A stretch of DNA of 64,000 bases from Nemertoderma westbladi. Its lineage: Eukaryota > Animalia > Xenacoelomorpha. Shown piece by piece: positions 13,725 to 61,148 of this stretch; position 1 is the stretch's first letter; every line of letters begins with the position of its first letter. The notes beneath the pieces are model-generated. The model was given only the letters and a program-made list of their open reading frames with translations, did not search any database and was not told where the DNA came from. The translations under genes were made by a program, and so were the position numbers. The DNA lies in NCBI GenBank assembly GCA_032718475.1, contig JAUCBJ010006629.1, positions 71,242-135,241 of the forward strand. Direction: 5' to 3'.

Positions 13725-14574
13725 ATGGCGCCGATCGAGGAACTCAAAATGATCCCGGGTACCGAGGAGGTTGTCTTTGTGTCTGACAACCTCCCCTGTA
13801 TCATAAACTCAACAACTCTCTACGAAAAGGAAGATCTACCGGGATCCGGAGGTTCTACCCGTTACTGGAGAGTCGCGGTTTCTACGGACGGGAACCGCGT
13901 TGCCTCGGGAACCGGTTGGGGGGGTCGGTGACTGTCTGGGAGCGGGAAGCGACCGGTTGGAGGGTCGTAGTGGAGGTACCGGGGGAGGAGTTAGTGGTTG
14001 GTGGGGGGGAGTATGAATAGGTGGGGAATAGATATAAATCCCTCCAACCGGGACGTCATTGCAACTTGTGGGGACGACGGGGGGATTTCTATTATATCAA
14101 TAACTGGGAGGAAATATAAGGTTACGAACTGGGTGGGGCATTCTGGGTCGGTTAACTGTATTCGGTTCGACTCGAACGGGTCCCGGTTGGCCAGCTGTTC
14201 GGAGGATAGAACAGTAAAAGTTTGGGTGACCGGAACCCGGGAGATGTTGTATCAATACCGGGGGCACAGTTGGGGGGTCTACAGTCTGGGTTGGGGTCCG
14301 GATGGGGAGTCAGTGGTGTCGGTAGATGAGGGAGGAGGGATCCATCGCTTCGTTGTTGGTACAGGGGAGACCTTGTGGAGACAGGAAGCAACTCCTGAGG
14401 TCCGGGGGATCGTATTGAGTCCGAACGGATCCAGAATCGCTGCTGTTGGGGTGAACACCGGGTTGATTTATATTCTAAATTCTGTAACTGGGGAGGTTAT
14501 CAACCGGATTGAAGGAACGGGGAGCGACATCCGTGCTGTCGATTTCTGTAAAGATGACCGGCATATTATTACAG
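13725..14574 (+). CDS. Coding exon 1 of host Roco gene: WD40 repeats (two compensating G7 frameshifts)
   Basis: GHSGSVNCIRFDSNGSRLASCSEDRTVKVW and GHSWGVYSLGWGPDG WD40 motifs. Upstream acceptor TTTTTAG at 13705; donor ACAG|GTAATT at 14574/14575. Confidence 0.8.
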
Positions 14575-15690
14575 GTAATTAATTAATAGACCTCTTTTAT
14601 TAAAACACGTTAAATTAATTAATTAGGCCTAGGGTCTAATTCAGTACCGTACCACGTACCATAGTAAGTAATAATCATTATAACACTTAAATGAATTAAT
14701 TACATTAATTATTATTCTTTAATTTAATTTTATTTAATTAATAATTTACTTACCGATATGATGCGGATTAACTGAACATTACCTTCACTGCCTCCTGCCA
14801 ATATTGGGTACCATGGGAACGAAATTAAAATTAGTCTAATAGGGGTATCAGAATATAGAACCATTACAACATAGTCTGCACTGTCAACACTGTAGTCGGA
14901 TAGTTTTAGGTGCGGTTTGGTTCCAGTAATAATGTAACATAAAAATAAACTAATAAACCAGCAATTAGCTTAATAATATTATGTATTCAGTTATCTGTTA
15001 GGTTGTTTGTTATTGGTTTGTATCAATGGCGTTTTAACCAACTGGTAGTTCTACTTAAATAAACAAACTATAATGGTACCAATAGGCGTACCGGTACTGC
15101 AATGCAGTAAAGTAACTGTAGAGAGAATACAACCGGTAATGTATAATAAAAACTTTCATTTTTAGGTCTGCCACACAGTCCCATTACTTAGGCATACAAC
15201 AAAGGCTTATTATAATAATATATTACACCTGTCATTTTAGATAAGAAGGGACATCCCTAACCCACACCCCACCTTATTTTTATACAATCTTTATCATACT
15301 TTATTTAACATGGGGCTACATAGAATTTTCTTTTTGGAATTTATAGACGTTTAACGTTTGCGATATCGCCCTCATTGCATTACGGCCATTCCTCATATTG
15401 GCCACAACGACATATTATTAGAAAGCTTGAGTTGTAAGGATTCCAAATATAAATATATTTTGAGTTTCGTTGAGAAACAGCTGAGATATAATACTGGCGT
15501 TCAAAGATTGTGATAAATTATCATTCGCTGGAAGTCATTTATTATTGTCATTTATTAGTGTTATTATTTTTATCATTTTTATAATAAAAATCCCATTTAT
15601 TTATCCTATTTATAATATATTATTATATTTATGTATGCATAGCTACACAAACATAAATAATATGTTACAGAAGGTTTTTGTGTTTACTAA

Positions 15691-15745
15691 GCCGGCACAG
15701 CATTCTTAAAAATGCAGCTGCAATGCAGCATGCCGATCCTAGTAG
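15691..15745. mobile_element. Second copy of the tiny insert, with 13-bp TSD
   Basis: TTGTGTTTACTAA at 15678-15690 and 15746-15758 flanks a core identical to 5102-5156. Confidence 0.8.
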
Positions 15746-16715
15746 TTGTGTTTACTAAACGGAATAACTGGTATATTATAATGAAAGATACTTCTTGCAA
15801 TCTTAGAACGCCCATATCTCATCTGTTTATCAACGAAATTGAGCTATTAATACATTTTTGGAATCCTCACAATGCAAGCTTTCAAATATATAAAAAATTA
15901 ATCACTATTGATGAGAAAAATGGCAACGAAACGAAGGCAACAATTTCGTAAAAGTCACTTTTATAAAACTTTTGTAAAAATTTAAATGTAAAATTGAAAA
16001 TTCCGGTTACATGGGGTCTTCTGCTCTGAGTTGAACTAATACAATTTTTAATAAGGCTTATTTCTGCGAGTTAAATTATCGTGCAGTAGGGAGCTGATTT
16101 TTGACTCATACGGTTTGGAATACTGTTTGGAACAACTTGACACTGTAGTATTTAGTTGTATGTAGCATTACAGTCTATTTTACATATTGCATGCATGAGT
16201 TTAACCTTCTTTCCCAACCTTCTTTAAATCGGAGCAAATTTGTTGAAATTTTTGAAACAGTTTCAAAACGAGTCAACTTAAACTTTGTAAAAAAAATTTT
16301 AAGGGGGGGGATACACCATTTTGGACCAAAATATTTTTACAATAAAAATATTTTTTTTTTGGTCTATTACAATGCACCATTGAATGGTGTTTCCAAATCT
16401 GATAACCGCTATTTCATAGCTCTTTTAGTTTTCAAGTTATAACAATTTCCATTTAGGAATTCCTATTGAAATTACTATTACTATGTATAATGAAAGGTCG
16501 ATTATCTCCAAATATTTTTGTTATTAAAGTGTCAACTTCAAAACCCTACTACTTCTACAATTTTTAAGTAATTAGTCTGAAACTTAAAAGTCTGAAAATT
16601 AGCCTGTGGGTGTCTAGATAGCCACCCTGCATAAAAGTATCAGACAACTTTGCGAAATTATTTGTTAATAAAATTTAATACTATTTATAACAAACCTAAA
16701 AATTTGCATAAATTT

Positions 16716-16733
16716 GCAGCGCCACCTAGCGGT
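16716..16733 (-). promoter_or_regulatory. CTCF-like motif
   Basis: Reverse complement ACCGCTAGGTGGCGCTGC closely fits the CTCF core consensus; binding cannot be shown from sequence. Confidence 0.35.
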
Positions 16734-17064
16734 GCAGAATTATTTTCACAAAATTTCGCCCGATAGTTATGTTGCCCCATCTTTAATCTATCACATAAAA
16801 AAACTTTCATGTGATTAGATTGCCTGTAAAATTGTTAGGGTTTTAAGCGCAACCAAGTTTTTTTTGTTGTTAACTAGTATTAACTAATATTAAATAGCGA
16901 AAAAAAAAATTTTGACCTGTCATGTAGAATAACATCTTAGGCACCTACCTATATGCCACATTTTAGCCAAAACCAAACAATTTTGAAACGCTGAGAGTGA
17001 TAAATCGAAGAGTTGTCCGAAAATGCTGTACCCCCCCCCCCCTTAATTGGTAGTTCGTCCGGTG

Positions 17065-17430
17065 TAACAGGCTGAGATAACTACCCACCAAATATGACTC
17101 CCCAGTCTTCTCAGTCTAGGCGGAGAACACCCCCAGTTTTTTTCCTAGATTTCTTAATTAACGGAAAGGAGCAGGTTACAATGGCAGGCTTTTCTAACCA
17201 AAACAATAAACGACAACTCATTAACATAGGTAACAGTTTAATTTTTGCAATATACGGAAATAGCACAGGTACGGATATTAATTATAACTCAATTAGGGAA
17301 GTTATCTCAGCCTAAGAGGAGTCATCTCAGCCTAAGGGGAGTCATAACTGGGTGTGGGGAGTGTTCTCAGCCTAGGCTGAGACGATTGGGGAGTCATTTC
17401 AAGAGGGAGTTACAGTATCTCAGCCTTGTA
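17065..17430. mobile_element. Fold-back/MITE-like element
   Basis: Inverted repeats AGGCTGAGATA / TATCTCAGCCT and GACTCCCCA..CTAGGC / GCCTAG..TGGGGAGTC. Confidence 0.45.
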
Positions 17431-17667
17431 AACCAGCACTATTGACTGCTATTAGACCGAAGTTTAAATTGGTAGTTCGTCTGGTCCAATATATTTGACC
17501 GAGTCCTACGTTCGAATTTATATGTGTGCAATCCAATCTGATCAAGGATTGTTTTTATAGCTTTGGAGACTGTTGGTACAAATCGTATAACACAATAAGT
17601 ATCGTCAGTAGGTTTGGGTGCTACTGTTGGAGCTAGCGGAGTGTTGGAGACTATTATCGACCACATC

Positions 17668-18090
17668 TCGCGGGTAGTTGTTTATATTAACAGTATACAG
17701 TATCGCGGGTAGTTGTTTATATTAACAGTATACAGTATCGTGGGTAGTTGTTTATATTAACAGTATACAGTATCGCGGGTAGTTGTTTATATTAACAGTA
17801 TACAGTATCGCGGGTATAGTTGTTTATATTAACAGTATACAGTATCGCGGGTAGTTGTTTATAGTAACAGTATACAGTATCGCGGGTAGTTGTTTATATT
17901 AACAGTATACAGTATCGCGGGTATAGTTGTTTATATTAACAGTATACAGTATCGCGGGTAGTTGTTTATATTAACAGTATACAGTATCGCGGGTAATTGT
18001 TGATATTAACAGTATACAGTATCGCGGGTAGTTGTTTATATTAACAGTATACAATATCGCGGGTAGTTGTTTATATTAACAGTATACAGT
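17668..18090. repeat. 35-bp minisatellite, 12 units, interrupted by the Polinton
   Basis: Unit TCGCGGGTAGTTGTTTATATTAACAGTATACAGTA; resumes in register at 57040-57083. Confidence 0.95.
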
Positions 18091-18576
18091 AGTAGTATAG
18101 AATGCTAGCCCACGGCATCAAGGTCACCCGTAGCCCATCATTACCATCCATTTCTAGTACTGCAGCCAATCAGAAGCCACCATTTCAACCTTTACCAGTG
18201 GTCGTTATTATTTCAACCAATCAGATGTCAGCATTTCATCCGTAACCATGGCAACTTCTCAAGTTCCCGCATCTTCCGCTAGAGGCGTTATTAGTCACCC
18301 AGCGCTAGTACTGCATCCAATCATAAGCCTTTATTTTACAGGTGTTCGAGTGTCTACACTTAGCATCAGGTAACGTCTACTATTTTTCAAATCGCTATTT
18401 ATCAGCGACCAGTATTTTCATATTTACCAACCTTTATTTTACAGACGCTAGAGGTGTCTACAGGTAACTTCTACTATTTTTCACCAGTAACTAAATTTAA
18501 TTTTGCAATTTATCAGATAACAAAATATTCAACAGGGTTCGAACTCGGGACTGTTATAACTCCTCACAACTCACCA
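18091..18576 (+). repeat. Left TIR (486 bp)
   Basis: Reverse complement of 56539-57039 with 4 substitutions seen and one 15-bp indel. Confidence 0.95.
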
Positions 18577-19035
18577 CTCACTCCCCCATCCAGCCTCAAG
18601 AGAAAAAGGCAATAAATATCCGAGTTATACCGTAGCTATTGAATTCTTCATCTTCAACTCTGGTGGCAGATGTTTATAAATAGCTTCTAGTTCGTTAACA
18701 TAATTACTATAGCATAGAATACATTAATTCGACTATTAATAATAATCGATTTCTTTTATCGATGTAACTGATCGGTCAACTAAGTTAAAATATAAGTTAG
18801 AATGACAGGGCTAGCATTGATCACGTTGCATCTGTTACTCGTTACTGCTATTTCACTCTCTAACTCACGCTAATGTAATAAATTTAGCTGTACACGTTGC
18901 ATCTGTTACACGAAGCTACTATATTCCTCACTGTAAGTCACTCTGCTGTATTAAAGCAACCATATAAACAGAAGTTTTACAATCTAATAATCATTTATTT
19001 AGTTTTTATTTTTCAAAATAGTTTTCATTCTAATT

Positions 19036-20481
19036 ATGGATTTATTTAAAAAAACTTCAAGCAATACTTGGAAATTTACATTTAATAAATATACCTGTAG
19101 TATTGTTTATGGCAAGTACTTTATATTACTCTCAAGCGATAGCAATGTAACAACGTGCTTCTCTTACCAGGATACACTCTACCTTCTAGACGTCTTAGAA
19201 ATATTAATCAACCGACAAAAGGAATCACCAGTTTCAAGAGGTAATATTTATCCTAATATAGAATTTACAACCGACGGCGTATGGTGCAATGAGGCAGAGA
19301 TTCTCATTCGCCATCTGGCCGAGACCCTTGTCACGAGACAAGCTGGGATGGCCGAGAGGGGCCTTGCCTGTGTGCAGGGTGGAGTTCGCCGGAGGATTCA
19401 ATTCGCCCTCCTCCGATCGAATTCTCTCTGCCTCAGAGGTGGTCGACGGTCTTGGCGCGGGTCGGGCTTTGGGGATGGGGCAGGTCTGCGGAGGTTCGAT
19501 TTGGCTACCCAATACTGATGAGTTGAATATGGGTGCAACATTATTGTTAAATTTTCTAAACTTTAATTAAATTTAACTCTTTATACAGTATGTATTTTCA
19601 TCATGTATAACCATCAATTATTGTATCCATATATTATATTATACCACGTTAATAAAAAAAAATTTACAAGAGGAAAGTTAAATATTTCCACCTGCATTAT
19701 AACTGAAAACGTATATATTCAGATGCAAGGCAAATGTCAAATTCTAAACAAATCACTCATTAATTTATTGCTTCAGAGTAAGACAGAAATATTAGAATTG
19801 TTATCACCACCACTCGAAATAATAAATCAGTGTTCTGTTGTTAATTTAACCAACCCATCTATTGTTGGTTTTGTAAGCAAATATAAAGGAACGACTTATA
19901 TGGGACTATGGGAGATTTCAGCTAGATATTCTGATGCTATTGGTCTTAGGTATTATAATGGGTTTAACTTAACAGCATCGGAAGTAAATTCATTGTGGTA
20001 TGAATGGAATTATGAAATTAGTAACGAAGGTGTCTTTTCAGAGCTAGATACGGACGATAAAGTAGCTTTATCTGACCGACTTAAAGTAAAAATAAATGTA
20101 CAAGAAAAAAAAGTAATTATTACAGACAAGGAAAGCAAATATTTACAGTTACATTACGATAAAGACATACCTCATATAGAGTTTCTCTATGATATGATGT
20201 TAAAGGTTTCATCAACTGATATAGCAGACGGTTTCGCGCTTCTATATCAACCAACTTGGAAGTTTAAGGTTAATAAGTCATGTCCAGAAGTAGTTTCATC
20301 CACATTTAATCCAAAGACATACATCGAAGAGACATCGAGTGATAGAAAGCGCAGATCTACATCTCAAACATCTTCCATTCCCGACAATGATTCTATACCT
20401 ACAAAGAAAATAAAAGTTACAAAAGCAAGTGAAGAGGTAGCAGATTACAATAAGGAACATATAAAAACAGTATCAGATTGA
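19036..20481 (+). pseudogene. Polinton PC4/Sub1-like ssDNA-binding domain protein (348 aa reconstructed), split by the CRE insertion
   Basis: Removing 19271-19669 gives an in-frame join PNIEFT-RGKLNIS. VSKYKGTTYMGLWE...GFNLTASEVNSL resembles the PC4 motif. Confidence 0.7.
19271..19660 (+). mobile_element. 5'-truncated CRE-like non-LTR retrotransposon
   Basis: DGVW..EA..LIRHLAE...VRRRIQFALLRSNSLCLRGGRRSW...DGAGL*, then 3' UTR and AATAAA/poly-A. TSD AATTTACAA at 19262-19270 and 19661-19669. Confidence 0.85.
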
Positions 20482-21032
20482 TTTATTATTAACTAGAGAC
20501 TTTTCTTTTTCAGTTTCACACTGACTTGTAAAGGTAACTTTTTAACACAAAGCGTGATTATTATAAAGTATTTGCATGTAAAGGTGACTTTATTGAGTAA
20601 ATATTGGTGATAGTTTAATGTGAGCATGGGATTATGTATAAAACATTCTCATGTAAATGCGTGAGTTTACACCACCATAATAAAACATTAGCGTGTAAAA
20701 CCTACTTTATCAATGAAAATTAAAAACGCATTATGTACATCTTGGTTTAGACTTGATTTTATTATAAAGAATTCAGTTGTAAAAGCAACTTTATTTATGA
20801 TGTTAGTTTCCCAATGAAACTGTTATTTATGATTGGTTGGTCTAAGTAGAAACTTGAAATATATATATAAAGAGCTCAACTGATTCAATCGAGCTCATTC
20901 TGAAAATATTAAATTAATTAAAGTTTAGATATTATATTTTATTTGTGTTGAGTAGCTTATGAATTTTTTTTTGATTATATATATATAACAATATTCATAT
21001 TAATTTTAAATTGTTTTTAGGATAATAAAGAT

Positions 21033-23784
21033 ATGGATAAACAATTGAAATGTCCATTTTGTCCTCTTCAAATTTCTAAACGAAATTATTTAACACATTT
21101 GAAATCGCATTTTGAAGAATACAATTGTTTTAATTGTCATGTGAAATGTTCACGTGAAGAAATTATGTAAACGACATGAAACGACTACGGGATGTAAAGA
21201 AATGAAGTTTTGCGTGTATGAAAAAACTTGCCCTACTTGTAATAAAGAGTATTTATATGAGAATTATTTACGTCACAACTGTCACCAACGTTATTATCAT
21301 GTTAGACCACCACAACGGAATCAAAACAATACTGTCGCATCTAGAAAAAGACTGAAATCTGGTCAAGGTCCATCAATTTTTAGCATCGAACGATCCTCAC
21401 ACGATAACCGTTTAGAAATCTATGTTTACAATCTTCCAAATGATGAAGATTTTCCTGATATTCATTCATCATTAATTAAAATTCTTCCCCATATTAAAAA
21501 CTTATTATTAGGAAAACTTAGCGAAATGAATGTACTTAGACCCTGGCTAGGTGTGAATATACTCATGTATCGATCACATTTTTCAGAGGGTGATCAAGAA
21601 GAAGCTTTCTATTTTAGTTCTTCAGGTGGTGCAGTTAATACCGTAGATTCACATGAAAGTTTTGACACATGGTTTGAGTATGTATTAGAAATATTGCAAA
21701 AAATAGCCATGTTTAACACTCGTGGCTCAGGGTGGCGCGTTAAATCTTTATTAAGAGTGGAAATTAAAGTAGCTGAATCCAAGTGTAGGTCACTGGAATA
21801 TAAGGGACACGGTTATATGGAGTTACCTAAGACTCTAGCGTGTAAACAATGTGTTATAAATATACAAACGGTTGATAATGATTGTTTTAAATGGGCAATT
21901 ATAGCCACAAAATTTAGTAGCAAAGTGAAGATAAACAAAAACCGTACTTCGCAGTACAAAAATTATATGAATCATTTTATTTTTGACAACGGCAACAAAG
22001 ATTATCCAACAGAATGGCAGCTTGCAATTAAACTTTTTGAAAAACAGAATTCTGCATATATAATTAATTTATTACTCTACGACAACAATCGAGTATCTAT
22101 ATTAAGACAGGCTCCATTTAGTAAAATCACTCCAGATAAAGAGTTATTGAATATATTACTTGTAAAAAATAAGAATACGAGTAAACAATCACATTATGTT
22201 TGCATAACTAACTTGAATCGTTTGATGAATACAACAGGTAAGCATATTAGATGTAGGAAATATTGCGAACGGTGTTTGTCGCATTTCTACAGAAATGTTC
22301 TAGAACGTCACCGTCTTGCTTGTTATCGAGGAAAAAGTCAAGTTGAGAAGCTACCGTCTGAAAAAAGAACTCACATTAGCTTTAGAAATTTAGACAGAAC
22401 ATTACCAGCATTGTTTGTAATATATTTTGACATAGAATCTATTTTGGAGCCAGCCACCAACAGTAAATTTATTCAGAATCATATTCCATGCGCTGTAAGT
22501 TATTTAATTGTTCCTAGTAGTGAATTAATCAATCCACCAAAATTTTCTTTGAAGACCTTTACAAAAACAATCGACAACAACTGTATTCAAGACTTTTTAG
22601 ACTCTGTATATAATGACATCACTCAATTATATAAGTGGGCAGAAACCCATACGCGAGAGAAGATTATACTTAACGATGTAGATAAGTTAAGTTTTTGGAA
22701 AGCTAAAACTTGCTTTTATTGCAATGTTTTATTTAAGGATAAGTCTGAGAAAAACAAACATCACTCACATATTACTGGTAACTATATAGCAGCTGCTTGT
22801 AACGCATGTAACCGTTCTTTATCGTTGAAACGACACATGTATATACTCGCTGCACACAACTGCAATCTCTACGATTTGCATTTTCTTTTACAAGTTGGTT
22901 TTACCAACAATAAATATTCTGATTGGGATATAAAGGTAATCCCTAAAAATTCTGAAAGGTATATTTCACTAAGTATGCATATACCAGTGAAAGATCAAAA
23001 ACAAAAAATCGAGCTACGTGTCTTAGACACATATCAATTTTTATCCTTTTCCCTAAGTACTTTAGTTGATTGTTCAACAAAGGATATAGACAGCGAGGAT
23101 ATAACATCAGTTCTACCAATTACTGAACAGCAAATGAAATATTTTTATCCAAATTTAAATAATGCAACAATTAAACGAAAAGGTATATTTCCCTACGAGT
23201 ATCTGACAGATTTAAATAAATTCAATGATTCGAAATTACCATCAATAGACAAATTTTATAGTAAATTAACACAAAATACCTGTACACCCGAGGAATATAG
23301 TTTTGCCAACGCATCATGGAGTCAGTTTGACTGCTCGAATCTCAAGGATTATCTTTTAGCATACTTAAAACTCGATGTTTGTCTCCTCGCCGATATATTT
23401 GAAAACTTTAGAAGAGTGTGTAGACAAAACTACGAATTAGAAGTAGTTTATTATTGTAGTATCGCAGCTTTCACTTATGATTGCGCTCTGAAATACAATA
23501 AATGTAAGTTAGCATTAATAAAGGATTACCAAACATATAGAGATTTTGAAGCATCTATTAGAGGTGGGGTTTCATTCTGTCGAAAGCATTACATAGAATC
23601 AAATATACCAGATACTGATAATTATGATTCAAGCAAGGAAGAGTGTCATATTTTCAATATAGATTTTAATTCCTTGTATTCTGGTAATTTAAGTAAAAAG
23701 CTACCTGTTTCAGGTTTTGAACAAGTCAACGTTACATATTTAGAGAATGCCGCTCCAGAAGAACTAATAAAATATTTAACCAAT
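21033..23784 (+). pseudogene. polB: Protein-primed family B DNA polymerase, N-terminal part (zinc fingers, exonuclease with endonuclease VII-like insert, motif A)
   Basis: ATG 21033, C2H2 fingers, +1 frameshift near 21160. Motifs RGSGW, YFDIES, CFYC..HHSHITG..ACNACN, HNCNLYD, KGIFPYEY, IRGG, DFNSLY; cut at the BEL TSD. Confidence 0.95.
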
Positions 23785-25949: not shown

Positions 25950-26385
25950 CCGCTCCAAGGGAAATCATATAATGTTTCCCTCCAATTGTAGAAGAGTATA
26001 AGGTGATGTATACAAAACAAAATAAATTTCTTCCAACCAATCTAAATAACATAATAATTCTACTATTTACAAATATTGCCATAGATATTGCATAATGAAT
26101 TACATACAAATTAAATTTACAAAATATTGTTTCTCGTTCATTCTTACTACATAATGATTACTACATACAAAATCAAATATAAAAATTTTGCTAGGGCAAG
26201 TGAAAGGAGTAAGCCAAACCCGCAGGTTTGTCTCCCCAATCACTTCCTTCGCCTCTTTCATAATATAAATTCAAATAACTCAACTAGTGTATACGAGTCT
26301 AGTCGAAAATTTTCAAATGCTACAATATACATCAGAGCGACGATGATGTATATATCTAGAGTCTGTCGCCCTGTGCCATAATGTA

Positions 26386-43835: not shown

Positions 43836-43840
43836 CCAAT

Positions 43841-45064: not shown

Positions 45065-45072
45065 GCCAAACA

Positions 45073-45618: not shown

Positions 45619-45704
45619 AAGGTGAAAATTAAACATTATTATTTTTCAATCAATCTATCGGTAGTTAGGGAAAACTAACCTCGTTTGAATAAGCATGACT
45701 CTCA

Positions 45705-47930: not shown

Positions 47931-47961
47931 TTTATCTGATACATAAAAGCTAAATGATTAA

Positions 47962-48417: not shown

Positions 48418-48419
48418 AC

Positions 48420-49679: not shown

Positions 49680-49681
49680 TA

Positions 49682-50245: not shown

Positions 50246-50246
50246 T

Positions 50247-51092
50247 TTAATTTATTCGTTTAAAGTGTAAGGTAATACAAGTTGTCCCGTATTCAAAATT
50301 CAAATCTTTTCCTTGTTTGTCTGTTATTTCAATATGAATGTATGTTATCTTATATGATTTTTTTACAGGGATATAATGAATTGTATCCTTGGCAAATTCT
50401 TTATTTATTACGCTACCATATTTCACGTCATCAGGTATCGCCACGCGACGAAGTAAAGCTAAACCAAATTCATTAATATATTGATTTTCAATTATATTAG
50501 TAGTCACGTACATGTTCGACTTAGGTTCTGGAATAGAGTTGGGAGGTTGAGGGCATAAAAATACCATCTGGTAAGATTTTTCTTCATTTCCGATAACCTT
50601 TATTAAATAACCCTTTATGTTATTTTTCGTCTTCAAAATAATTTTAAAATTTGGATTTAAATTCGCGCCGAGATTATTTTCAGTAATTCCAAAATAATAG
50701 GCTAATTGTTGACCTATAAATAACTCTCGCACAGTTTTCCCTAAAATAAATTGCAACCTATTTTGCTGAGTATTTTCAACTATTTGTAATTTATCTTTCA
50801 ACGCCCCAGTGTTAAAATAATCTATAATGTCATTGATACTGTAGAACAAGCCGGATGGAAGTGTATCCTCAAAATTTTTTTTTCCTTTTTTTAATAAAAT
50901 AACATTCTCTACATTGTTATACATGGACGGCAACGTAGCTAAGTAAAATATACTTTTTATACCTACCACCCAGTTTTCGTTTGGATTTATAGGTAAGGCA
51001 CCGTGAAAATTGATTTGATAATTACTGGCGTTATTGCGAGGAAAATCAATTGGACATGAGTTACTCGGCAGCCTTACGTAGAATTCATCCAT
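50247..51092 (-). CDS. Minor capsid/penton-like protein 1 (PX-like)
   Basis: FYVRLPSNS...NNASNY, WVVGI, MYVTTNIIE, LLRRV, YIPV, ITDKQG, TLHFK. Confidence 0.85.
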   Translation of the reverse strand: MDEFYVRLPSNSCPIDFPRNNASNYQINFHGALPINPNENWVVGIKSIFYLATLPSMYNNVENVILLKKGKKNFEDTLPSGLFYSINDIIDYFNTGALKDKLQIVENTQQNRLQFILGKTVRELFIGQQLAYYFGITENNLGANLNPNFKIILKTKNNIKGYLIKVIGNEEKSYQMVFLCPQPPNSIPEPKSNMYVTTNIIENQYINEFGLALLRRVAIPDDVKYGSVINKEFAKDTIHYIPVKKSYKITYIHIEITDKQGKDLNFEYGTTCITLHFKRIN

Positions 51093-51957
51093 CGCTACCA
51101 CCACGTATTAACTTAAGTGTTACAACAGTGCGACCTCCGTTGAAGTTAATTAGTTGCCCCTGTCCGTCACGTAAAGTAATTAATATTGTTTTTAGTTTTT
51201 TATTCAACAAAGGATAATAGCAAATGCTCTCGTATTCGTGATTAATATATTTTCGATTTAATTGCGTTAAAGGACAGGTTCTTAAGAGCGGTGCTAAAGC
51301 GTCGCCAACAAATGAGCTCTCAATAATATCTGTATATATGAAGATTGTATTTTTATTACGTGTTATATTCGTGGGATTAGGAAAATCTAAAATGCCAATT
51401 TCTGAAATTTTTGGTCCGCTATAATTTAAAATTAATATTGGCTGTTCTATATTGCTTAATTCATCTACTGTAGTGGTACTGTATATATCCCAATTCGGAA
51501 TATCCGGATGATTCTGATCCAATAACGGTTTTAAGCCTAGAATTTGTATTAAATCACCGCGGAGACTTAATTGTATTTTTTTCAACTTTTTAGGAAATTT
51601 AAATTTAATTCTAGAATTATTTGTATAAAAAATGAATTCGAAATCTCTATATTTCGCTTCAGAATTAAACAGTTTATTTATATCATCAATAATGACTTGA
51701 ATAGAGTTATGCATACCAGGAAATAAACTGAATAATTTAGCATCTTTTGCATCGACGCCGATTGACAGCGAGATTTGAGTTTGCAGCGTAATATTACTGT
51801 ATGTTGCTTGATATTGAAGTTCGGCAAGACCAATTTTGGCGTTTGGACCAATATATAATTCTTCGGCTAAATCAACAGTAAACTCGCTAGGATTATTATT
51901 GGGGTAAGTGCTTAATGAACTATCTGACAGTAGAGTGATATATGTATCTGTGGCCAT
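51085..51957 (-). CDS. Minor capsid/penton-like protein 2 (PX-like paralog)
   Basis: YITLLSDSS..YPNNNPSEF, IGLAEL, IFIYTDIIE..VGD..APLLR, YYPL, LRDGQG. Confidence 0.85.
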   Translation of the reverse strand: MATDTYITLLSDSSLSTYPNNNPSEFTVDLAEELYIGPNAKIGLAELQYQATYSNITLQTQISLSIGVDAKDAKLFSLFPGMHNSIQVIIDDINKLFNSEAKYRDFEFIFYTNNSRIKFKFPKKLKKIQLSLRGDLIQILGLKPLLDQNHPDIPNWDIYSTTTVDELSNIEQPILILNYSGPKISEIGILDFPNPTNITRNKNTIFIYTDIIESSFVGDALAPLLRTCPLTQLNRKYINHEYESICYYPLLNKKLKTILITLRDGQGQLINFNGGRTVVTLKLIRGGSDG

Positions 51958-52194
51958 TATTTAAGCTCGCTCTCTCTACTTGACTCCATTGTACATACAG
52001 TATAATGTTAAATAATAGACATCTGTGACCACGTTCATTGCCGCATCTTCTACAGAATATGCGTGGGATCAATATTTTACTGGCTTTATTTAAAGCGGGT
52101 GAACTATATAGTATAGTAATATCATTCGAGTTAATATTGATTAATTACGGTCATATGCAACCAAAATGAATTAATATACAGTAGAAACCTAAGC

Positions 52195-53283
52195 TTATTG
52201 AATGTGTTGCACCCAAGACTGTTTCTTGGATCCGATGAATCGGACTAAATATTCTTTCTTCCCATTGCGCACACGTTCTTTAAGTTTGCCAATATTTTTG
52301 TCAATCGGAAGATAAATATTACTGTTCGGGTGGACCTTTTGGAGTTCGTATGAATAAAATGAGCCTTTTATTATAGCTCCAGCGCTGTCCTTAATATCGA
52401 ACATTACCGCTGGTACTCTATCCAATCTAACACGATGAATAATAAATAATTCACGTGTCCATTGTTCTCGATAGCCTTTAGCAAAAGCAGTACGGGCGAT
52501 AGATAATCGTACTGTATCTCTAACTTTAAATTTTATTTTCTTGTGATTTATCTGTCTATATTTCCCATATAATCTATTCATTAATTCAGTTTCATTAAAT
52601 TTATTAACTTCAATGGGTGTCATTTTTATTGTTCTATGATACGACCTATTATAAGCTGAGATAAGCTTAGGTAAAATTTTTATCCAAACATTATTTCCCC
52701 TCTGAGTGAAAATTTTGAACATCTTTGTTTTTAATGTGCGATTGAATCTCTCAACAATAGCCGCCTTATTCACAGAGTACATTACGTAATACTGTATACC
52801 TAACGTATCTAAATATTTCCTTACAGATTTATTTAGAAACTCAGAACCTTGATCCGTGGCGATTCTCTTTGGTTTACCCTTTTGGAATATTTTTTGCAAT
52901 ATACTAATAATCTCAATACCTGTTTTTGTTTTCATACCATAGCCAAAAGCAAGCCGACTGAAGGCATCAATGCACGTCAATATATAGTTATAATTATTAT
53001 TTTGCGATTTATATTGCTGCATATCCACCAAATCTATCATATATATATCTTTTAACCCTCCCGTAAATATTTTAGATGTTGGATAATGTTGTCTACGTGG
53101 TGCGTGAAGGGTGTATGTATTTTGCCCGCTCAACCATTTCTGGGCTTGAGCTGGTTTGATGTTTGCGGCTTTTGCTAATTTTGCGACACTTGCAAATCCC
53201 GCAGGAGATGAAGGATCTAAATAAATTCTTGACAGTTTTTTGTCTAAGCTTCGAGTTAAAATCGGTTTCATCTTGCGAGGCAT
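52195..53283 (-). CDS. Retroviral-like (rve) integrase with C-terminal chromodomain-like tail
   Basis: DDE motifs IDLVDM / TDQGSEF / VERFNRTLK; YNRSYHRTIKMTP; EYLVRFIG...SWV. Confidence 0.95.
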   Translation of the reverse strand: MPRKMKPILTRSLDKKLSRIYLDPSSPAGFASVAKLAKAANIKPAQAQKWLSGQNTYTLHAPRRQHYPTSKIFTGGLKDIYMIDLVDMQQYKSQNNNYNYILTCIDAFSRLAFGYGMKTKTGIEIISILQKIFQKGKPKRIATDQGSEFLNKSVRKYLDTLGIQYYVMYSVNKAAIVERFNRTLKTKMFKIFTQRGNNVWIKILPKLISAYNRSYHRTIKMTPIEVNKFNETELMNRLYGKYRQINHKKIKFKVRDTVRLSIARTAFAKGYREQWTRELFIIHRVRLDRVPAVMFDIKDSAGAIIKGSFYSYELQKVHPNSNIYLPIDKNIGKLKERVRNGKKEYLVRFIGSKKQSWVQHIQ

Positions 53284-53334
53284 CTTTTCGACAACCACAA
53301 GTAATATGTATATTCAAATCTCTTATAAAGGGCA

Positions 53335-53508
53335 TCACCGTAAGAACAACTGAAATTTTTTTTTAATTATTTTCTTTGACGTTGATGTTTTGAAGGGTTT
53401 TCTTTTTGTAGTATTTACTCTAGGTATATCTTGTGGTTTTAAATCAGTAGCTAACGGTTTACTCGATACTAAATATAATTTTCTAAATGTTACTCCTGTT
53501 TTAACCAT
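53335..53508 (-). CDS. Small basic 57-aa ORF (not in the ORF track), possible shortened PW-like protein
   Basis: MVKTGVTFRKLYLVSSK...KKIIKKKFQLFLR*; fills the gap between neighbouring genes and is preceded by TAATAATA. Confidence 0.45.
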   Translation of the reverse strand: MVKTGVTFRKLYLVSSKPLATDLKPQDIPRVNTTKRKPFKTSTSKKIIKKKFQLFLR

Positions 53509-53516
53509 TATTATTA

Positions 53517-53900
53517 TTACCGTCTACGGTTAATTTTTTTCGCAATAGCCGCTCCAGCGGCAGCGGCCCCCGCACTCGCGGCAAGTTTCGCACCAATGCC
53601 GAGTAAGGGTATTAGAAACGGAAGTATGCCTCCAGATTGATTGCTTAACTTTTTTCTGTAACTTGATATATTTTTTGTCTTACGGTTGAGGGATTTCAAT
53701 ACCTTCTTATATCGCCGAATATTTCTAAATGAATGCGGGGTCAATTGTACGTTACCATTTAGAACATTTAATGCGGTATTTACAATGAGCCGTATTAATT
53801 CGTTACTGGCGGTATGGTTAATAAAATAAGTTCTTTGTTGAGGGGTAGCGCTGCGTAGAAATTCCAGTTCGTTTCGATATTTCTGCACAAGTCTATTCAT
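53517..53900 (-). CDS. Conserved Polinton virion-associated protein (PM-like)
   Basis: ALNVLNGNVQLT...YK..L..L, then QSGG followed by hydrophobic ILPFLIPLLG. Confidence 0.7.
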   Translation of the reverse strand: MNRLVQKYRNELEFLRSATPQQRTYFINHTASNELIRLIVNTALNVLNGNVQLTPHSFRNIRRYKKVLKSLNRKTKNISSYRKKLSNQSGGILPFLIPLLGIGAKLAASAGAAAAGAAIAKKINRRR

Positions 53901-53940
53901 TGTTGCAACATTATTGAAAATTGTTACAAAATATTAATTA

Positions 53941-54618
53941 TTAATTATTATTATTATTATTATTTTCGCTACGTTTATAGTCAATGTAATTTTTAATGTA
54001 ACAATTATGATTACGAAATATATCCGATCTAAATCTTAAATGTTCGGGTGTTTCCTGCCGTAAATCAATTAAGAAATGTGAAAATGGCTCAATTGTTGCA
54101 TCTTGATAAGAATCAACTAAAAATTTGGTCTGCCCTGGTAACATTTGCTTCGCGAAATTTAAAACCGATAGACTGTCTCTTGGATTTTTCATTAATACTA
54201 AAGTATGGCTATTAATTGATCTTGTGCGGTTATGCTTCCCACCGTAAAACATGTTTTGCGTTATAAAACAAATAAATATATTGGAATGATGAGCTACCTT
54301 AGTAAACAATACAGTTAATGCTGTACTGGACTCAGTTTCTGTTAACAAATCATCTATAATTAATAAATCTCGACTATTCACTAAAGTATCTATATTTTCA
54401 GGCAAGCCTTTGTAAAGGTGAGTAATACCAGGAATAGTTGGTGGATTGCTCCCGTAACAATATAATACTCGCAAGGGGGCTTCGTTGAAGCAGCCATTCT
54501 TGTGTTTAATTAAATTCCCCACAAAGGTTGACTTTCCGGAACCAGATGGGCCAGAAATTATCATACTTGTTCCCATTTGAAAGTTTAAATTATATGGGCC
54601 TGAATTAAAGTCAGCCAT
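53941..54618 (-). CDS. A32/FtsK-type DNA packaging ATPase
   Basis: Walker A GPSGSGKS, Walker B LLIIDD, ITQN, KNPRD. Confidence 0.95.
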   Translation of the reverse strand: MADFNSGPYNLNFQMGTSMIISGPSGSGKSTFVGNLIKHKNGCFNEAPLRVLYCYGSNPPTIPGITHLYKGLPENIDTLVNSRDLLIIDDLLTETESSTALTVLFTKVAHHSNIFICFITQNMFYGGKHNRTRSINSHTLVLMKNPRDSLSVLNFAKQMLPGQTKFLVDSYQDATIEPFSHFLIDLRQETPEHLRFRSDIFRNHNCYIKNYIDYKRSENNNNNNN

Positions 54619-54834
54619 TTATTATTATTATTAAGATATATCAACAATATAATATAATATAATATCAATATCAATATCAATAAACCATCACCATTACTAT
54701 GTATATAACAATAATTGATGGAACTACAATATTAGAGTACTGTATATTTAATTAACATATGACACCACTACTGTATGTGACGCTCGCTGCAACAAAAGGT
54801 GCTATTTCCAATTATAGTATAGACTGATGTAATT

Positions 54835-55287
54835 TCAAGCATGGTGAGCATCTTTATACGCGAAATAATGATAGGTAACATCGGCGGTTTGGAAATCACT
54901 TCCCGAGAATTTCGCGCTTATGATTTTTTTATGTTCGCTGCTAAAAAAATAAGGAATATAATAGCAACACCTTCGAACTACGTTTCTATAAAAAATATTC
55001 TCCAATATTGTAAATAAATCTCCAGGATCATTACTTTTCGCAGAAATATAAGTTATATTGCGAAGCTCTTTCCAATAAAAGGGTTGGTATCTTGCCAACT
55101 TTATATTAAACTTAGATATGGGTGCGCGACAAATAGGACAAATTTTAGAACAATAATTATTCATTTCGGAATATTGTACAATACATTGTACGCAAGTTGC
55201 ATGTTTATTTTCACATTTATAATAATCTCGATGTTGTTGCAATAAATTAGAATAGCAAACTGGACATTTTTCATTTAACATATCCAT
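54835..55287 (-). CDS. RING-finger protein (putative E3 ligase)
   Basis: CPVC...CENKHATCVQC...CPICR. Confidence 0.75.
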   Translation of the reverse strand: MDMLNEKCPVCYSNLLQQHRDYYKCENKHATCVQCIVQYSEMNNYCSKICPICRAPISKFNIKLARYQPFYWKELRNITYISAKSNDPGDLFTILENIFYRNVVRRCCYYIPYFFSSEHKKIISAKFSGSDFQTADVTYHYFAYKDAHHA

Positions 55288-55457
55288 CTTCCAAATTTTA
55301 AAGTAAATTGAAAATAATTACCACAATACACAACAACAACAACAACAACAAACAAAACTGTTATACTGTATATACAAATACTACTACAATTTTCGATTAT
55401 TTAAAAATAGTAAAATTTTATATATAATCATAAAATATTTATAATATAGGGGAAAAG

Positions 55458-55883
55458 TCAAGAATCAATGATATTATCCGATGATTCTTCAGTTTCGACA
55501 AAGGATTCTTTTGAAATCATTACAATAAAGAAAGACATAATTTCATAGAGGTTATGTCGATTTAGCCGTATTTCAAACTTTTCACCAGCTTCGTTGTATT
55601 GTGTAATAACAATAAACCCCTCTATCATGGATAATAGTAAGATGTTGATTAATTTTCCCTCTTGCTCAACTTTCCGGTTGTAATCTAAGAGATGAATACT
55701 ATTATCAGAAGCATCAATATCGATTGAGCTTAAAACTTTCCTGGCTTTTTCAGAAAACTCAATTTTATATTTATCATCTCCCTGACGGTAAATTGTATAA
55801 TCAATAACAATATAGACTTGACCATCTTCTGCAAAAAATGAATGCCTTACTATTGGCATAAGCATATCGGAATCGGAAGACAT
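55458..55883 (-). CDS. Hypothetical acidic Polinton protein (141 aa)
   Basis: ATG ORF co-oriented with the structural cluster; upstream TATA-like run (~55980) and CCAAT (~56050). Confidence 0.55.
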   Translation of the reverse strand: MSSDSDMLMPIVRHSFFAEDGQVYIVIDYTIYRQGDDKYKIEFSEKARKVLSSIDIDASDNSIHLLDYNRKVEQEGKLINILLLSMIEGFIVITQYNEAGEKFEIRLNRHNLYEIMSFFIVMISKESFVETEESSDNIIDS

Positions 55884-56538
55884 TATTTAATTTATTTTAT
55901 TGTAAATCAAACAAACAAAGTAAAAACTTTTTAAACTAAAACCATTACAAATGATTAATTGTGATTAAAGCATGAGATTATATATAAGATATTTTCAAAA
56001 ATAATACAGGTCTTAAACTGAAAAAAATAGCCTAAATTCAGTTTATTGATTGGTTGATTAGCCGGTAGGGAACTACTGTACAGTACAGTACAATTAAATA
56101 AAAAATTACGGACAAGGTTGAGTAACTATGGAAATGTTCGTATACGTGTAGCTGGAAACGTGGCGGAATTTCACGTATCCTACCGCTGGACTGGTAGGCT
56201 GCTTGGTTTGGTGACAGCCGTCGAGGAGTAGCGGTGGGTAAATAATCGTTGAGTTGGCAATCGATATAATATAATATATAATATGTGTGTAGTTGGCTAC
56301 GTTGTTGTCATCATCATATACAGTATACAGCGGTGGTGATGTGGCGAAAAGGGGAATAATTGGTGGGTGGGTAACAGCTGTGGATTGAGTGGTGATGTGT
56401 TGGAGGCTAGCCATGCATAGAGAGGTTAGGCTACGCGAAGATGAATATGCAATGGTTGGTGAAAAATTGCGATTTGAAAAATAGTAGACGTTACCTGATG
56501 CTAAGTGTAGACATCTCGAACACCTGTAAAATAAAGAT

Positions 56539-57039
56539 TGGTGAGTTGTGAGGAGTTATAACGGTCCCGAGTTCGAACCCTGTTGAATATTTTGTTATCT
56601 GAAAAATTGCAAAATTAAATTTAGTTACTGGTGAAAAATAGCGATTTGAAAAATAGTAGAAGTTACCTGTAGACACCTCTAGCGTCTGTAAAATAAAGGT
56701 TGGTAAATATGAAAATACTGGTCGCTGAAAAATAGCGATTTGAAAAATAGTAGACGTTACCTGATGCTAAGTGTAGACACTCGAACACCTGTAAAATAAA
56801 GGCTTATGATTGGATGCAGTACTAGCGCTGGGTGACTAATAACGCCTCTAGCGGAAGATGCGGGAACTTGAGAAGTTGCCATGGTTACGGATGAAATGCT
56901 GACATCTGATTGGTTGAAATAATAACGACCACTGGTAAAGGTTGAAATGGTGGCTTCTGATTGGCTGCAGTACTAGAAATGGACGGTAATGATGGGCTAC
57001 GGGTGACCTTGATGCCGTGGGCTAGCATTCTATACTACT
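56539..57039 (-). repeat. Right TIR (501 bp), preceded by an extra ~75-bp subrepeat at 56461-56536
   Basis: Reverse complement of 18091-18576. Confidence 0.95.
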
Positions 57040-57083
57040 TACAGTATCGCGGGTAGTTGTTTATATTAACAGTATACAGTATC
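57040..57083. repeat. TSD and final unit of the 35-bp minisatellite
   Basis: TACAGT ATCGCGGGTAGTTGTTTATATTAACAGTATACAGTATC. Confidence 0.95.
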
Positions 57084-57159
57084 AGTGAGATATTGTATTT
57101 CAGCTTCATACTTCGGCTCAGAAATATTGCAAAAAACTTATTTTTGTAATTTTAACCAT

Positions 57160-57256
57160 CCTATTGTCCCGCCTATTATCCCGCCTATTGTCCCGCCTAT
57201 GGTCCTGCCTATTGTCCCGCCTATTGTCCTGCCTATTGTCTCGACTATTGTCCCGT
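57160..57256. repeat. 12-bp tandem repeat CCTATTGTCCCG, ~8 units
   Basis: Read directly from the sequence. Confidence 0.85.
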
Positions 57257-57744
57257 TTATCATTGCAATAATCCTTTTTTTACCTACCTTTTATATACCT
57301 TTTTTTGCAATAATAATTAACTATAAGAAAGTTTTAGATGTCAGTTATATTCGAGGAAAAATTCAGGGTTGGAGCAAGTTAAATATTATTAATCAAATTT
57401 CAAATATAATGACAAATATATTTCGGTAGCACAGTGCTATCATTATCACTAAAGTACAAATTCTAATATAAATTGAAGAATTGACTAACGTAACGTATGA
57501 CTTGTTATCTGTTGAAAATTTCACTAAAAACAGAATAAATGTTGTAACCAAAAAACAGAAGACATAGGCAGGGAAACGTATAGGGACCGTAGGTGCATAT
57601 TGGAGAGCCTAACGAATTATATTTATAATTATATTTGTAATTTGATTAATAATATTTAACTTGCTCCAACCCACAATTTTCCATCATAATATTGGATGTC
57701 AACTCAGTGGAAAGACAGCTTAATGATAATTATACTTTATGCAG

Positions 57745-60700
57745 GAGATGATGGCGGCACAATTACAGTAATTGATACGTTCAGTAAAGATCAAACTGAA
57801 ACAAAGAAAAGTATCAAACAGGTGGAAAGTATATTGGAGAAAACTGAAGAATTAAAGGAAATTGTTGAGTATATTGGATGGGTTGGTCCCATAAATAAAC
57901 CACTTCAAGGTAAGATAACTGATATAATTATATCTACTGTTGATGTTCTTTCAGATAAAGAGAAAGAACTTTACTTTAGACTGGATGCAGATATTTCTGA
58001 GTTAACAACCCAGAATCTAGTTAGTATTTGGGGTTTAAATGAAGTTTCAACAATAGAAATTGTTAATAAATTCCAAGACATGGGACTTATGATTATGAAT
58101 ATAACTGGATCAAATACACTGAAACTTCCAAAATTTTTAATTAATTATATAAAAGAACAAAAACTGCCGATAGAGATACTGGCGAGAGGCCCAGAAGCAT
58201 TGGCTGCTTATAAAGCAGCTCTTTCTAAAGGGACTACATGGATACTGAAAACCCGGTTAATGTTAGTGGGACAAGAGAGGGCTGGTAAAACTAGTTTGAA
58301 GAAGTCCCTTATTGGTCAACCGTTTGATATAAATGAACCAATAACTGATGGTATTGACTCATCTGCTAACTGTATTATAAATACCGGACAAAACACAGAT
58401 TGGACCAACATGAAAGAAGAGCCTGAGACAGCTGTTGATGTCGTCATTACTAAGGAAATTGCAAAAACAGTTCTAGAAAGAAAACAAGTTGCAGTTGATG
58501 AGTCTGATATTTCTGGAACTTCAGCAATGGGTATTGGTATTGCGACACCCTCAGTTGCAACATCTTCATCTTCTACTGATGATCAACCTAAGATTGCTAC
58601 TTCAACTTCAAGTTATGGTGCTGAGAAAGTTCAAAAGGATAGTTTGTGGAGGCGGGTAGTTTCAGTATTACCTGGTTTAAAGACAAAATATAATAGCTTT
58701 ATAACAACTTTATTAACTGGTGAGAATGAAAGTAAACCTATTGAAGAAAATCGTTCTAGGCAACCCATAAGGGAAGCTATGGAAAATGATATTCCTGGCA
58801 ACATCACAAAGGGAGTAGAGGATATATTGTTATCTGGTAAACCTCAAGATATTCTGGCTAAATTTAATGAGGAAGACAGTCGCTTTTCTCTACAGATAGT
58901 CGATTTTGGTGGCCAATGTATTTATTACACAACCCATCAGATATTTTTGAGCAGACGAGCTATTTATATAATTGTATTTAATCTCTTGGAAAATCTTGAA
59001 AAAACTCCAGATATTATTTTCAGATCTGATGAAAACAATATTAATGAGTTTGTTTTCGGTGAGATTAAGAATATTGAGTTTATTGAATTCTGGTTAAAAA
59101 ATATTTATTCATTTGGTACAAAAATAGAAGTAAATTCTTGTCCACCTGTTTTTGTAGTTGGAACTCATAAAGGCAGCTTACATGCTGATCCTGATACTCA
59201 ATCTGTAATAGCAAGTAAAATATTTGAAAAGATTAAGACCCATTTGGGTAAATCTTCATATACAGATAATCTAATTAAAGATTACATTGCTATAGAGAAT
59301 AATATAGAGATTATAAATAGTGGAGAGAAAGGACTTGAAAATTTACAGGCCGATATTGTCAAGGAAATGGTAAATTTTAAGGAGGAAATACCTTTGCAAT
59401 ATCTAAAATTTGACCAACTTGTGTCTCAATTAATTAGGGATGGTAAAGTTTATATTGACATTGACTTGCTAGAGATTAAATTAAAGGATATTGATGTTGA
59501 AATGGATAACATTGGTTTGAAAACCATGTTAGAATTTTACCACGATTTGGGTACAATAATTTACTTTGACGATGAATATCTAAGGGATACTGTTATACTG
59601 AGCCCAGAATGGTTGAGTGGAATGTTTACCAAAATAATAACTGTAAAAGACAAAATAAAGAAACAACATTTTACATTCTGGAAGGACCTGGATAACAATG
59701 GTATATTACATGAAGAACTCCTTGATTATCTGTGGGAAGGCGTTCTTGATAAAAAACAATTTATGTTGAATATTCTAGAACGTTTTGATTTATTATGTGA
59801 ACGAGTTTTACCAACAACCGAAAGAACATTGCAAGATGATGTAAAGTTGGCTTATTATGTACCTTGCCGCCTTAAATCTGTTAGATATACTCCATTCACA
59901 CCAAGACAATGTAAAGTTGAATTTTATATTACATTCAAGAGTTTCTTACCGCAAGGATTGTACTACCGTTTAATTAAGAGAACTATTGATTTGTCCTACA
60001 TTGTAGGGAATAGGGTAATTCAACCTAAACTTTACCACAGAGTTGCTCAAATATTTTTAGATTTTAATCATCAGGTAATTTTGGAAAGATCTTCTATTTC
60101 ATTAAATTGGATTAAAGTTCAGGTAGTTAGATCTGAGATGTTTAGTTCGGGCGATGAACAAACTGAAAGTAAACTTGCACCAGATCCGGATATTGTTAAT
60201 AAAGTAAATCATTTTATTAATACTTCATTGAAGGAAATTATTACCCAAATGAGATTTAAAAATATTTCATTTGATTTCGAAATAAAATGTGAATGTAATG
60301 CTAAATGCGATCAACATAGATTACTTGACTGCAATGAAGAAGGATGTTTTCACTTTGTTAAACTGGCTGATATTTTATCAAATGATTTTGTTGAATGTCA
60401 ATTTAATAACTCTGTTAGAAGTCGATTTATTAGTGGAAAATTCCCTGTTGTTGGGAGATTTAGCTCACATTGGTTAAACATTACAACTAACCAAGATGAC
60501 CTTATTGATAGACTGGAAATCTCAGAGTTACTTGTATACTTAGCAAGTAAGGGGGCTATATCAAAGGAAGTTTTAGCTGTTATTGAATCTAAGTCGAATT
60601 TGTTGAGTAAGAATAAGATTTTGTTGGAGTCAATAAAATGGGGATCAGAAAATAATTACAAAGTATTTATTGAAGCATTATATGTAACCAATCAACCGCT

Positions 60701-61148
60701 TTTGGTTGAAATTTTGCATGAAAAAATCAAAATGGAAGACCAAATGTTCCCTGATATTCTAACAAAGTATAAATATATGTTAATGAAAAATTTAGAACAA
60801 ACTAAATTTGTTGCACAACTTCTTATTAACAGAAAAGTTATAAGTAAATCTATCCTAGAAATAATAGAATGCAAAGAATCAATAGATAGTAAGAATGTTG
60901 TACTTATAAACGCAGTAATGAAAAGATCTTACAAGGATTTTCTATCTTTTTGTAAATGTCTTCGTGTCACCAACCAACATCATTTAGCTGATACTCTAGA
61001 GGAAGCAACCAAAGGTTATGATGCGGATATTGTAGACATTACCAATCAAGCTGATGAAGTTGCTGATATAGATAATACCAATCAAGGTGGAGAGGCCGCT
61101 GGGGTTATAGACGTTACCAATCAACCGGTGGAGAGGCTGTTGTTATAG
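57745..61148 (+). CDS. Coding exon 2 of host Roco gene: end of WD40, winged-helix-like segment, Roc GTPase, COR, two CARDs
   Basis: Acceptor CTTTATGCAG| in phase 1. Roc: GQERAGKTS, TDGI, DFGGQ, VGTHK. COR: LEFYHDLGTI..VILSPEWL, YYVPCRL, LPQGLYYRL. Two CARD-like units end FIEALYVTNQPLL and FCKCLRVTNQHHLA. Confidence 0.88.

Follow-up and report, generated by a model that had tools for sequence, protein, structure and literature searches.

A candidate Roco-family gene for a WD40 – winged helix – Roc – COR – CARD – CARD protein, split by a transposon-filled intron in Nemertoderma westbladi

We analyzed a stretch of 64,000 nucleotides from Nemertoderma westbladi (assembly GCA_032718475.1, contig JAUCBJ010006629.1, positions 71,242 to 135,241 of the forward strand; here referred to as the window), in which two exons on the + strand appear to encode a single protein with the order WD40 propeller, winged helix, Roc, COR, CARD and CARD (Table 1). 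On balance we lean, somewhat more than evenly, towards a live Roco-family gene whose exons are spliced and whose product is an immune or cell-death sensor. The predicted protein belongs to the Roco family and not to the Apaf-1 family. In fact, its Roc is followed directly by COR and the GTPase motifs appear intact, while no NB-ARC or NACHT match was obtained by Pfam in either exon or in the flanking frames. The domain order had been proposed in an earlier reading of this DNA made without database searches (the original prediction), and it is supported by Pfam matches to WD40, Roc, COR-A and CARD. We infer the splicing, expression and function of the gene from its sequence.

Exon 2 lies in one open frame (57690-61148, + strand), which runs over 1152 codons at 32% GC with no stop or frame break. 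Pfam detected Roc (E 2.2e-11), COR-A (E 9.6e-13) and CARD in two stretches (E 1.1e-10), and the CARD segment, when cut out and searched alone, again gave two stretches (E 1.6e-13). The motifs G1–G5 of Roc were all located, with a Val replacing the Trp before G3, and an insertion of about 170 residues follows switch I. Moreover, of 75 columns with conservation in at least 85% of 35 relatives, exon 2 retains 68, and it shows no apparent decay. After COR-B comes a segment in which eight Cys/His positions are common to 67–97% of the ungapped relatives; it matches no Pfam family and is likely a zinc-binding module. An AlphaFold model, one of the checks proposed with the original prediction, is confident for Roc-COR (pLDDT of Roc mostly 75–90 outside the insertion), and a Foldseek search with this part returned LRRK1 (E 3.6e-18) and the C. 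tepidum Roco. The winged-helix region and the CARDs, however, are mostly below pLDDT 50 in the same model, which speaks against the proposed architecture.

The two exons are probably joined across the intron. The donor (CAG/GTAATT, after 14574) and the acceptor (TGCAG/, before 57745) are both phase 1, as had been predicted, and the proposed 43-kb intron was computed as 43,170 nt between these signals. Reading past the donor meets a stop after two codons. To score the junction, a position-specific matrix for the last 11 positions of the WD40 repeat was built from 254 repeats of 21 database proteins and applied to each downstream AG that keeps the frame open (1431 sites). The acceptor at 57745 ranked first among all 1431 with +7.9 bits, the next site reaching −3.4 (z 4.6), and the last WD40 repeat rises from 4.9 to 10.3 bits once the start of exon 2 is added. 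The view that the join completes a WD40 repeat was thus borne out, with the reservation that this junction scores under all 185 complete training repeats, whose minimum is 11.4. Other observations also count against the join. A local hidden Markov model places it only sixth of 1162 and is less sharp than the matrix, the GC content at third codon positions is 56% in exon 1 (overall GC 52%) against 24% in exon 2, and three AATAAA sites lie less than 500 nt downstream of the donor. One AATAAA, at 61257, also follows the stop of exon 2.

In an alternative reading, exon 2 is a separate gene or joins another WD40 exon, exon 1 being separate or mis-assembled. The open frame of exon 2 does reach 18 codons 5' of the acceptor and contains two Met codons there, and in-frame Met also occurs inside the winged helix; the exon compositions differ; and an assembler could collapse two Polinton copies lying in the same minisatellite. 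We nevertheless give this reading very little chance. Exon 1 ends in the middle of a repeat and exon 2 opens, in the correct phase, with precisely the strands that exon 1 lacks, and no other WD40 frame was found in the flanks or in the intron outside the mobile elements. Moreover, the minisatellite array and the target duplication match across both ends of the Polinton that fills most of the intron, and therefore the two sides were once adjacent. We regard splicing of exons 1 and 2 across this intron as likely. Because a strong, in-frame phase-1 acceptor lies 20 nt before the ATG, a further upstream exon, untranslated or coding, is probably joined at that acceptor (13704); it was not found within the window. 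Additional coding exons in the flanks or the intron were rejected, as none of 73 flanking and intronic frames contains a Pfam family reaching its cut-off.

Exon 1 is generally WD40-like. Its last piece matches Pfam WD40 with E 1.6e-23, and a repeat scan with X placed at the breaks described below detected six repeats; residues 1–45 may form a seventh blade, which was recognized by eye only and scored −16.9 in the scan. A database search with the exon returned 21 generic WD40 proteins at 23–39% identity. The original prediction treated exon 1 as one readable part of the gene and overlooked two frame breaks, at the G7 runs beginning at 13918 and 14003. Its estimate of about 1420 residues agrees with the joined coding length of both exons (1417 codons), but a protein of this length cannot be translated from the assembled sequence.

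Because of the frame breaks, the gene may no longer be functional. In the assembly the ATG frame of exon 1 ends at codon 69, and this weighs against a live gene. The two exons may once have formed a gene and now be a pseudogene or null allele, with genuine breaks and a 39-kb insertion that prevents transcription over the full length. The two breaks lie less than 90 nt apart, and the intron carries a Polinton with an LTR element nested in it. Moreover, G runs slip in living cells too, and homopolymers are true mutation hot spots. On the other side, the breaks coincide with the only two G7 runs of the exon, its two longest G runs, while its two G6 runs stay in frame; this pattern would fit the errors of long reads. 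After 13918 the shifted frame finishes a WD40 repeat (10.8 bits, compared with −7.4 and −11.5 in the other frames). Exon 2, as described above, stays open throughout and retains its motifs, and the LTR element is antisense to the gene. We infer that the breaks are read or assembly errors, or else too recent for the rest to have decayed, and consider a dead gene unlikely, though the weightiest of the alternatives. Should the breaks prove genuine, the locus would be no more than a decayed instance of Roc-COR shuffling. Programmed frameshifting at the G7 runs was also considered and rejected, since it would need two opposite shifts.

Between the propeller and Roc lies a segment in which the original prediction saw a likeness to the winged helix of Apaf-1. 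Support comes from a profile of bacterial AP-ATPase winged helices, made from 16 loci, one of which was dropped for a stop. The best match of this profile in PDB is Apaf-1 363–448 (E 2.7e-7), followed by plant NRC proteins. After removal of two frameshifted rows, leaving 13, its positions 9–95 of 97 align to the window segment with 12.4 bits, and none of 4772 scored shuffles (5000 made) did as well; with hhalign, 77 columns were aligned at a probability of 25%, and none of 100 shuffles was as good. At the end of the winged helix the window protein has Pro-Lys, where all 15 profile rows, and Apaf-1 as well, carry a His-Asp pair, which we take to be the ‘MHD’ motif.

Other results disagree with this assignment. 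The segment is the best of the 544 frames of the window for the AP-ATPase profile, yet with an E value of 0.35, and the family had been chosen by eye, after one other. Neither Pfam nor phmmer against PDB detected the winged helix, and a profile of 72 coral STAND winged helices gave 0.9 bits, with 384 of 1960 shuffles as good. The segment also went undetected by BLASTP, and the best plasmid tblastn match had E 2. A single-sequence model of the region reached pLDDT 37.6 and found no Foldseek match at E 0.001. In three bacterial genomes Pfam PF21296 matched nothing, as in its own controls. In favour of the assignment, an Atlas search returned an unnamed cluster as top match (0.92), with the same length and size as the top match for the winged helix of the fusion protein P0235 (see below); the named neighbours WHD_ROQ1, WHD_MalT, HTH_77 and DUF7779 (each 0.83) are leads only. 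We therefore keep the Apaf-1/AP-ATPase type as a weak assignment of moderate support, the profile and the Atlas matches speaking for it and the failed detections against it. The domain was probably captured from an Apaf-1-like gene and persists as a remnant, in the role of a spacer or latch outside any ATP-driven ring. A coiled coil before the winged helix was rejected because no clear heptads are present.

A search with the window protein gave 89 matches, led by Neuralized-Roc-COR-Death-TIR proteins from hemichordates, molluscs and an annelid together with amphioxus DED/Death Rocos; the best E value is 4e-115 and identities are 30–36%. A further search, with residues 1–218 of exon 2 as query, covered 1.84 billion representatives and yielded 597 matches, the best 150 of which align through the start of Roc. 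Pfam analysis of 52 of these found, before Roc, Neuralized, DED, CARD-FN3, NACHT, NB-ARC, ankyrin and TAZ as well as HEPN, Macro, Ets, SH3, OTU, C2H2 and Ras, and after Roc-COR, Death, TIR, CARD, kinase or trypsin. FIIND and GT4 are also among the partner domains of the relatives. A quick tree built from 48 Roc-COR segments places the window protein in a group of 24 rows of such relatives (SH-aLRT 98), outside the 12-row clade of Neuralized-Roc-COR-Death-TIR proteins. The window protein belongs to an invertebrate Roco clade with promiscuous partners, in which sensors and death-fold modules are exchanged, a pattern like that of an innate-immune receptor family.

Some results fit this placement, or the proposed architecture, less well. 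The window protein forms a long and compositionally odd branch without a sister. No WD40 was found in 238 Roc-bearing matches, only 60 of which have at least 150 residues before Roc, and none in the flanks of 80 related metagenome loci (median size of the loci 5 kb). The AP-ATPase-type winged helix is likewise absent from the 238 matches, and a metagenome scan for close relatives found none among 41 pattern matches. Four related proteins (P0235, P0220, P0210 and P0228) carry STAND NTPases of the NB-ARC or NACHT type fused directly before Roc. P0235 has the order STAND ATPase, winged helix and Roc, with the winged helix retained. These fusions may be products of gene-model fusion.

The exon structure of the clade was surveyed in the best 80 of 486 related metagenome stretches (L001–L080), 62 of which have a readable Roc start. 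A YAG lies within 15 nt before the conserved Pro of a Pro-x-Glu-Ile motif in 52 of the 62, always in phase 1, and most of the other 10 have an AAG at the acceptor place, as judged by eye. Moreover, 56 of the 62 meet a stop within 45 codons upstream of the Roc start. The loci are redundant, and a conserved Val codon helps to build the acceptor signal. The Roc-COR of the clade thus appears to be one long exon opening with a phase-1 acceptor, which would account for the variety of its partners. For the window gene, the phase-1 acceptor is found 140 codons upstream of the place that it has in the clade, at the Roc start, and therefore the linker and the winged helix would have been added inside the exon.

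As for the mechanism, CARDs signal through binding other CARDs, and Roc-COR forms dimers, not rings. We propose that the protein would work as a cytosolic immune or cell-death sensor, in which the propeller would bind a ligand or a host partner and this binding would shift the nucleotide cycle of Roc-COR. By analogy with the C. tepidum Roco, a resting GDP-bound or empty dimer may hold the CARDs and the GTP state may free them; the CARD pair, freed or clustered, would recruit a CARD-caspase or an adaptor. The C. tepidum Roco is a dimer when empty or GDP-bound and a monomer with GTP (PMC5714945, available in part), so that the statement in the original prediction that Rocos dimerise through COR is incomplete. 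On this analogy, we favour ‘resting dimer off, GTP state on’ over the reverse by a narrow margin. With no STAND ATPase and without the invariant histidine in its winged helix, the protein is unlikely to form an apoptosome-type ring, and a true apoptosome was rejected for want of an ATPase. Of the ‘inverted apoptosome’ originally proposed, the logic of sensor, switch and CARD is plausible; the apoptosome is not.

The protein may also be made and have a scaffold role in trafficking or the cytoskeleton, as do LRRK2 or the Rocos of Dictyostelium; the CARDs would then be plain adaptors, with no effector part in death or immunity. Propellers of the WD40 type serve generally as scaffolds, and ligand sensing is here only predicted. 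Characterized Rocos, in the available part of one account, function in chemotaxis, cytoskeleton and vesicle traffic (PMC4104024). We find the scaffold rather improbable: the window protein has no kinase, its clade partners are mostly immune and apoptotic modules, and its winged helix appears to be of the AP-ATPase type. A broader proposal goes beyond the sensor that we favour and is doubtful to us. According to it, invertebrates would possess a third intracellular platform for receptors beside NLRs and Apaf-1, built on a phase-1 Roc-COR cassette that is shuffled among sensors and death-fold effectors. This gene would be a live member, with a winged helix acquired from an Apaf-1-like gene as latch and a tandem CARD fired by a GTP switch in place of an ATP ring.

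Among known systems, the nearest by sequence are the Neuralized-Roc-COR-Death-TIR proteins (Saccoglossus ‘neuralized PATS1’, Ptychodera, Owenia, Mytilus and Nucella) and the DED/Death-Roc-COR proteins of amphioxus. The window protein shares with them the Roc start motif, the long Roc insertion, the Cys/His module after COR and a C-terminal death-fold, whereas WD40 and winged helix replace Neuralized or DED, and two CARDs replace Death-TIR. Compared with Apaf-1, CARD, winged helix and WD40 are all present, and the winged helix fits the profile whose best match is Apaf-1. However, the order is reversed (WD40 N-terminal, CARDs C-terminal), there is no NB-ARC ATPase, the conserved His is missing, and about one propeller stands where Apaf-1 has two. 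The coral-type fusions P0235 and P0220, with the NACHT-Roc proteins P0210 and P0228, also place STAND modules, winged helix included, before the Roc of the clade, but in these proteins the ATPase is retained, and the winged helix comes from a different family, with no match to that of the window protein. LRRK1 and LRRK2 have a Roc-COR fold like that of the window protein, and LRRK2 also has WD40; in them, however, WD40 is C-terminal after the kinase, CARD is absent, and identity to the window protein is 12–16%.

In prokaryotes, the available parts of Kaur et al. 2021 (PMC8195603) describe LRR – AP-GTPase – COR – effector systems and AP-GTPases displacing STAND NTPases, as well as counter-invader proteins that combine a beta-propeller with AP-GTPase, some with TIR (Figure 6 source data, 41 text matches in about 20 rows). 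The order of repeat sensor, Roc, COR and variable effector is shared with the window protein, while the prokaryotic systems mostly use LRR and carry TIR, caspase, GT4 and other effectors. The term ‘COR+CARD’ had no match in the searched supplement files of that paper (12 of 13, one partly). Thus the idea that Roc-COR stands in place of a STAND ATPase between sensor and effector, put forward in the original prediction, is plausible but was already in print (PMC8195603). In the quick tree, the window Roc-COR groups with animal rows, apart from the prokaryotic AP-GTPase rows.

In eukaryotes, Trichoplax has at least 17 Rocos with CARD, Death, TPR, LRR or AAA domains, and the available text, figure aside, names no WD40 or winged helix among them (PMC4104024). 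The partly available accounts of other lineages report LRR exon shuffling in the Rocos of brown algae and frequent WD40 repeats at the N-termini of Rocos (PMC11378527), and Roco-TIR-Death proteins in Aplysia (PMC9334734). As far as these sources go, propeller-Roc-TIR proteins (prokaryotes) and CARD-bearing Rocos (Trichoplax) are already in print, and the exact architecture was not found elsewhere. No animal WD40 – winged helix – Roc – COR – CARD – CARD protein was found in the accessible literature, which excluded most subscription papers; this agrees with the original prediction, to which the architecture was not known from characterized proteins. With the same coverage, no account of a phase-1 Roc-COR cassette in animals was found.

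Work on animal Rocos has mostly dealt with LRRK2 and DAPK1. Both have a kinase as output, and what their GTPase contributes is under dispute. A Roco that lacks a kinase and bears tandem CARDs would show directly in which nucleotide state a caspase or adaptor is recruited. More broadly, the relatives make up a large invertebrate clade whose Roc-COR appears to begin as a phase-1 exon and is coupled to more than 12 sensor and effector modules.

Table 1. Predicted gene parts and mobile or repeated elements in the window
Feature	Position	Strand	Remarks
Pyrimidine tract and TAG acceptor, 20 nt 5' of ATG	13670..13704	+	phase 1, in frame
Exon 1 coding part, WD40 propeller	13725..14574	+	from ATG 13725 to donor after 14574
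First frame break, at G7 run	13918..13924	+	ATG frame stops at 13929-13931
Second frame break, at G7 run	14003..14009	+	back to ATG frame
Inferred phase-1 GT-AG intron	14575..57744	+	43,170 nt
35-nt minisatellite, 12 copies, Polinton insertion target	17668..18090		array resumes at 57040-57081
Polinton/Maverick	18091..57039		inverted repeats, target duplication, integrase, protease
BEL/Pao LTR retrotransposon nested in Polinton	23785..43835	-	LTRs 2.17 kb
Exon 2	57745..61148	+	winged helix, Roc, COR, two CARDs
Exon 2 start, missing end of last WD40 repeat	57745..57790	+
Helical linker, low-confidence model	57792..57875	+
Putative winged-helix domain, AP-ATPase (Apaf-1, plant NLR) type, without conserved His	57918..58160	+
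Roc GTPase	58161..59366	+	G1 58269, G3 58902, G4 59160
COR	59391..60281	+	COR-A by Pfam; COR-B by relatives and model
Cys/His-rich segment after COR-B	60282..60446	+	conserved in clade
Two CARDs in tandem	60480..61010	+	Pfam
Short repeat-derived tail and stop	61029..61148	+

The Polinton in the intron has terminal inverted repeats of about 490 nt that are 96–99% alike and a target duplication of 6 nt, and the intron without it and one copy of the target site measures 4,215 nt. Its proteins include, by Pfam, an integrase (rve, E 2.3e-11) and an adenovirus-type protease (Peptidase_C5, 2.5e-5), while the packaging ATPase is represented by a weak Pox_A32 match (0.002) below the family cut-off. For the protein-primed family B polymerase and the capsid proteins, no match was found in Pfam, PHROG or PDB. 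Motifs A, B and C of the polymerase were recognized by eye in three pieces, and its gene (21145-45064, + strand) is broken: the long terminal repeat (LTR) element interrupts it beyond motif A, and an in-frame stop precedes motif C. The open frame at 45034-45618 (+ strand) matches the TATA-binding protein family (Pfam TBP, E 1.1e-7, above cut-off), and a direct repeat of about 400 nt lies at 45854-46904 in the same element.

The nested BEL/Pao element has LTRs that are 97.8% alike, a target duplication of 5 nt and an orientation antisense to the gene. At 20 kb it is unusually long, and it contains two extra frames without Pfam matches, one of 1259 codons with three CCHC knuckles (26386-30165) and one of 796 codons (38124-40514). 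A small inverted-repeat element (57353-57685) lies just 5' of exon 2, and an array of 45 copies of a 29-nt unit (61985-63302) lies 3' of the gene. A 42-nt array of 165 copies occupies 4438-11372. All three of its − strand frames are open, one of them giving a Pro/Thr/Ser mucin-like repeat, and the end of this array together with the adjoining DNA is duplicated at 1-843.

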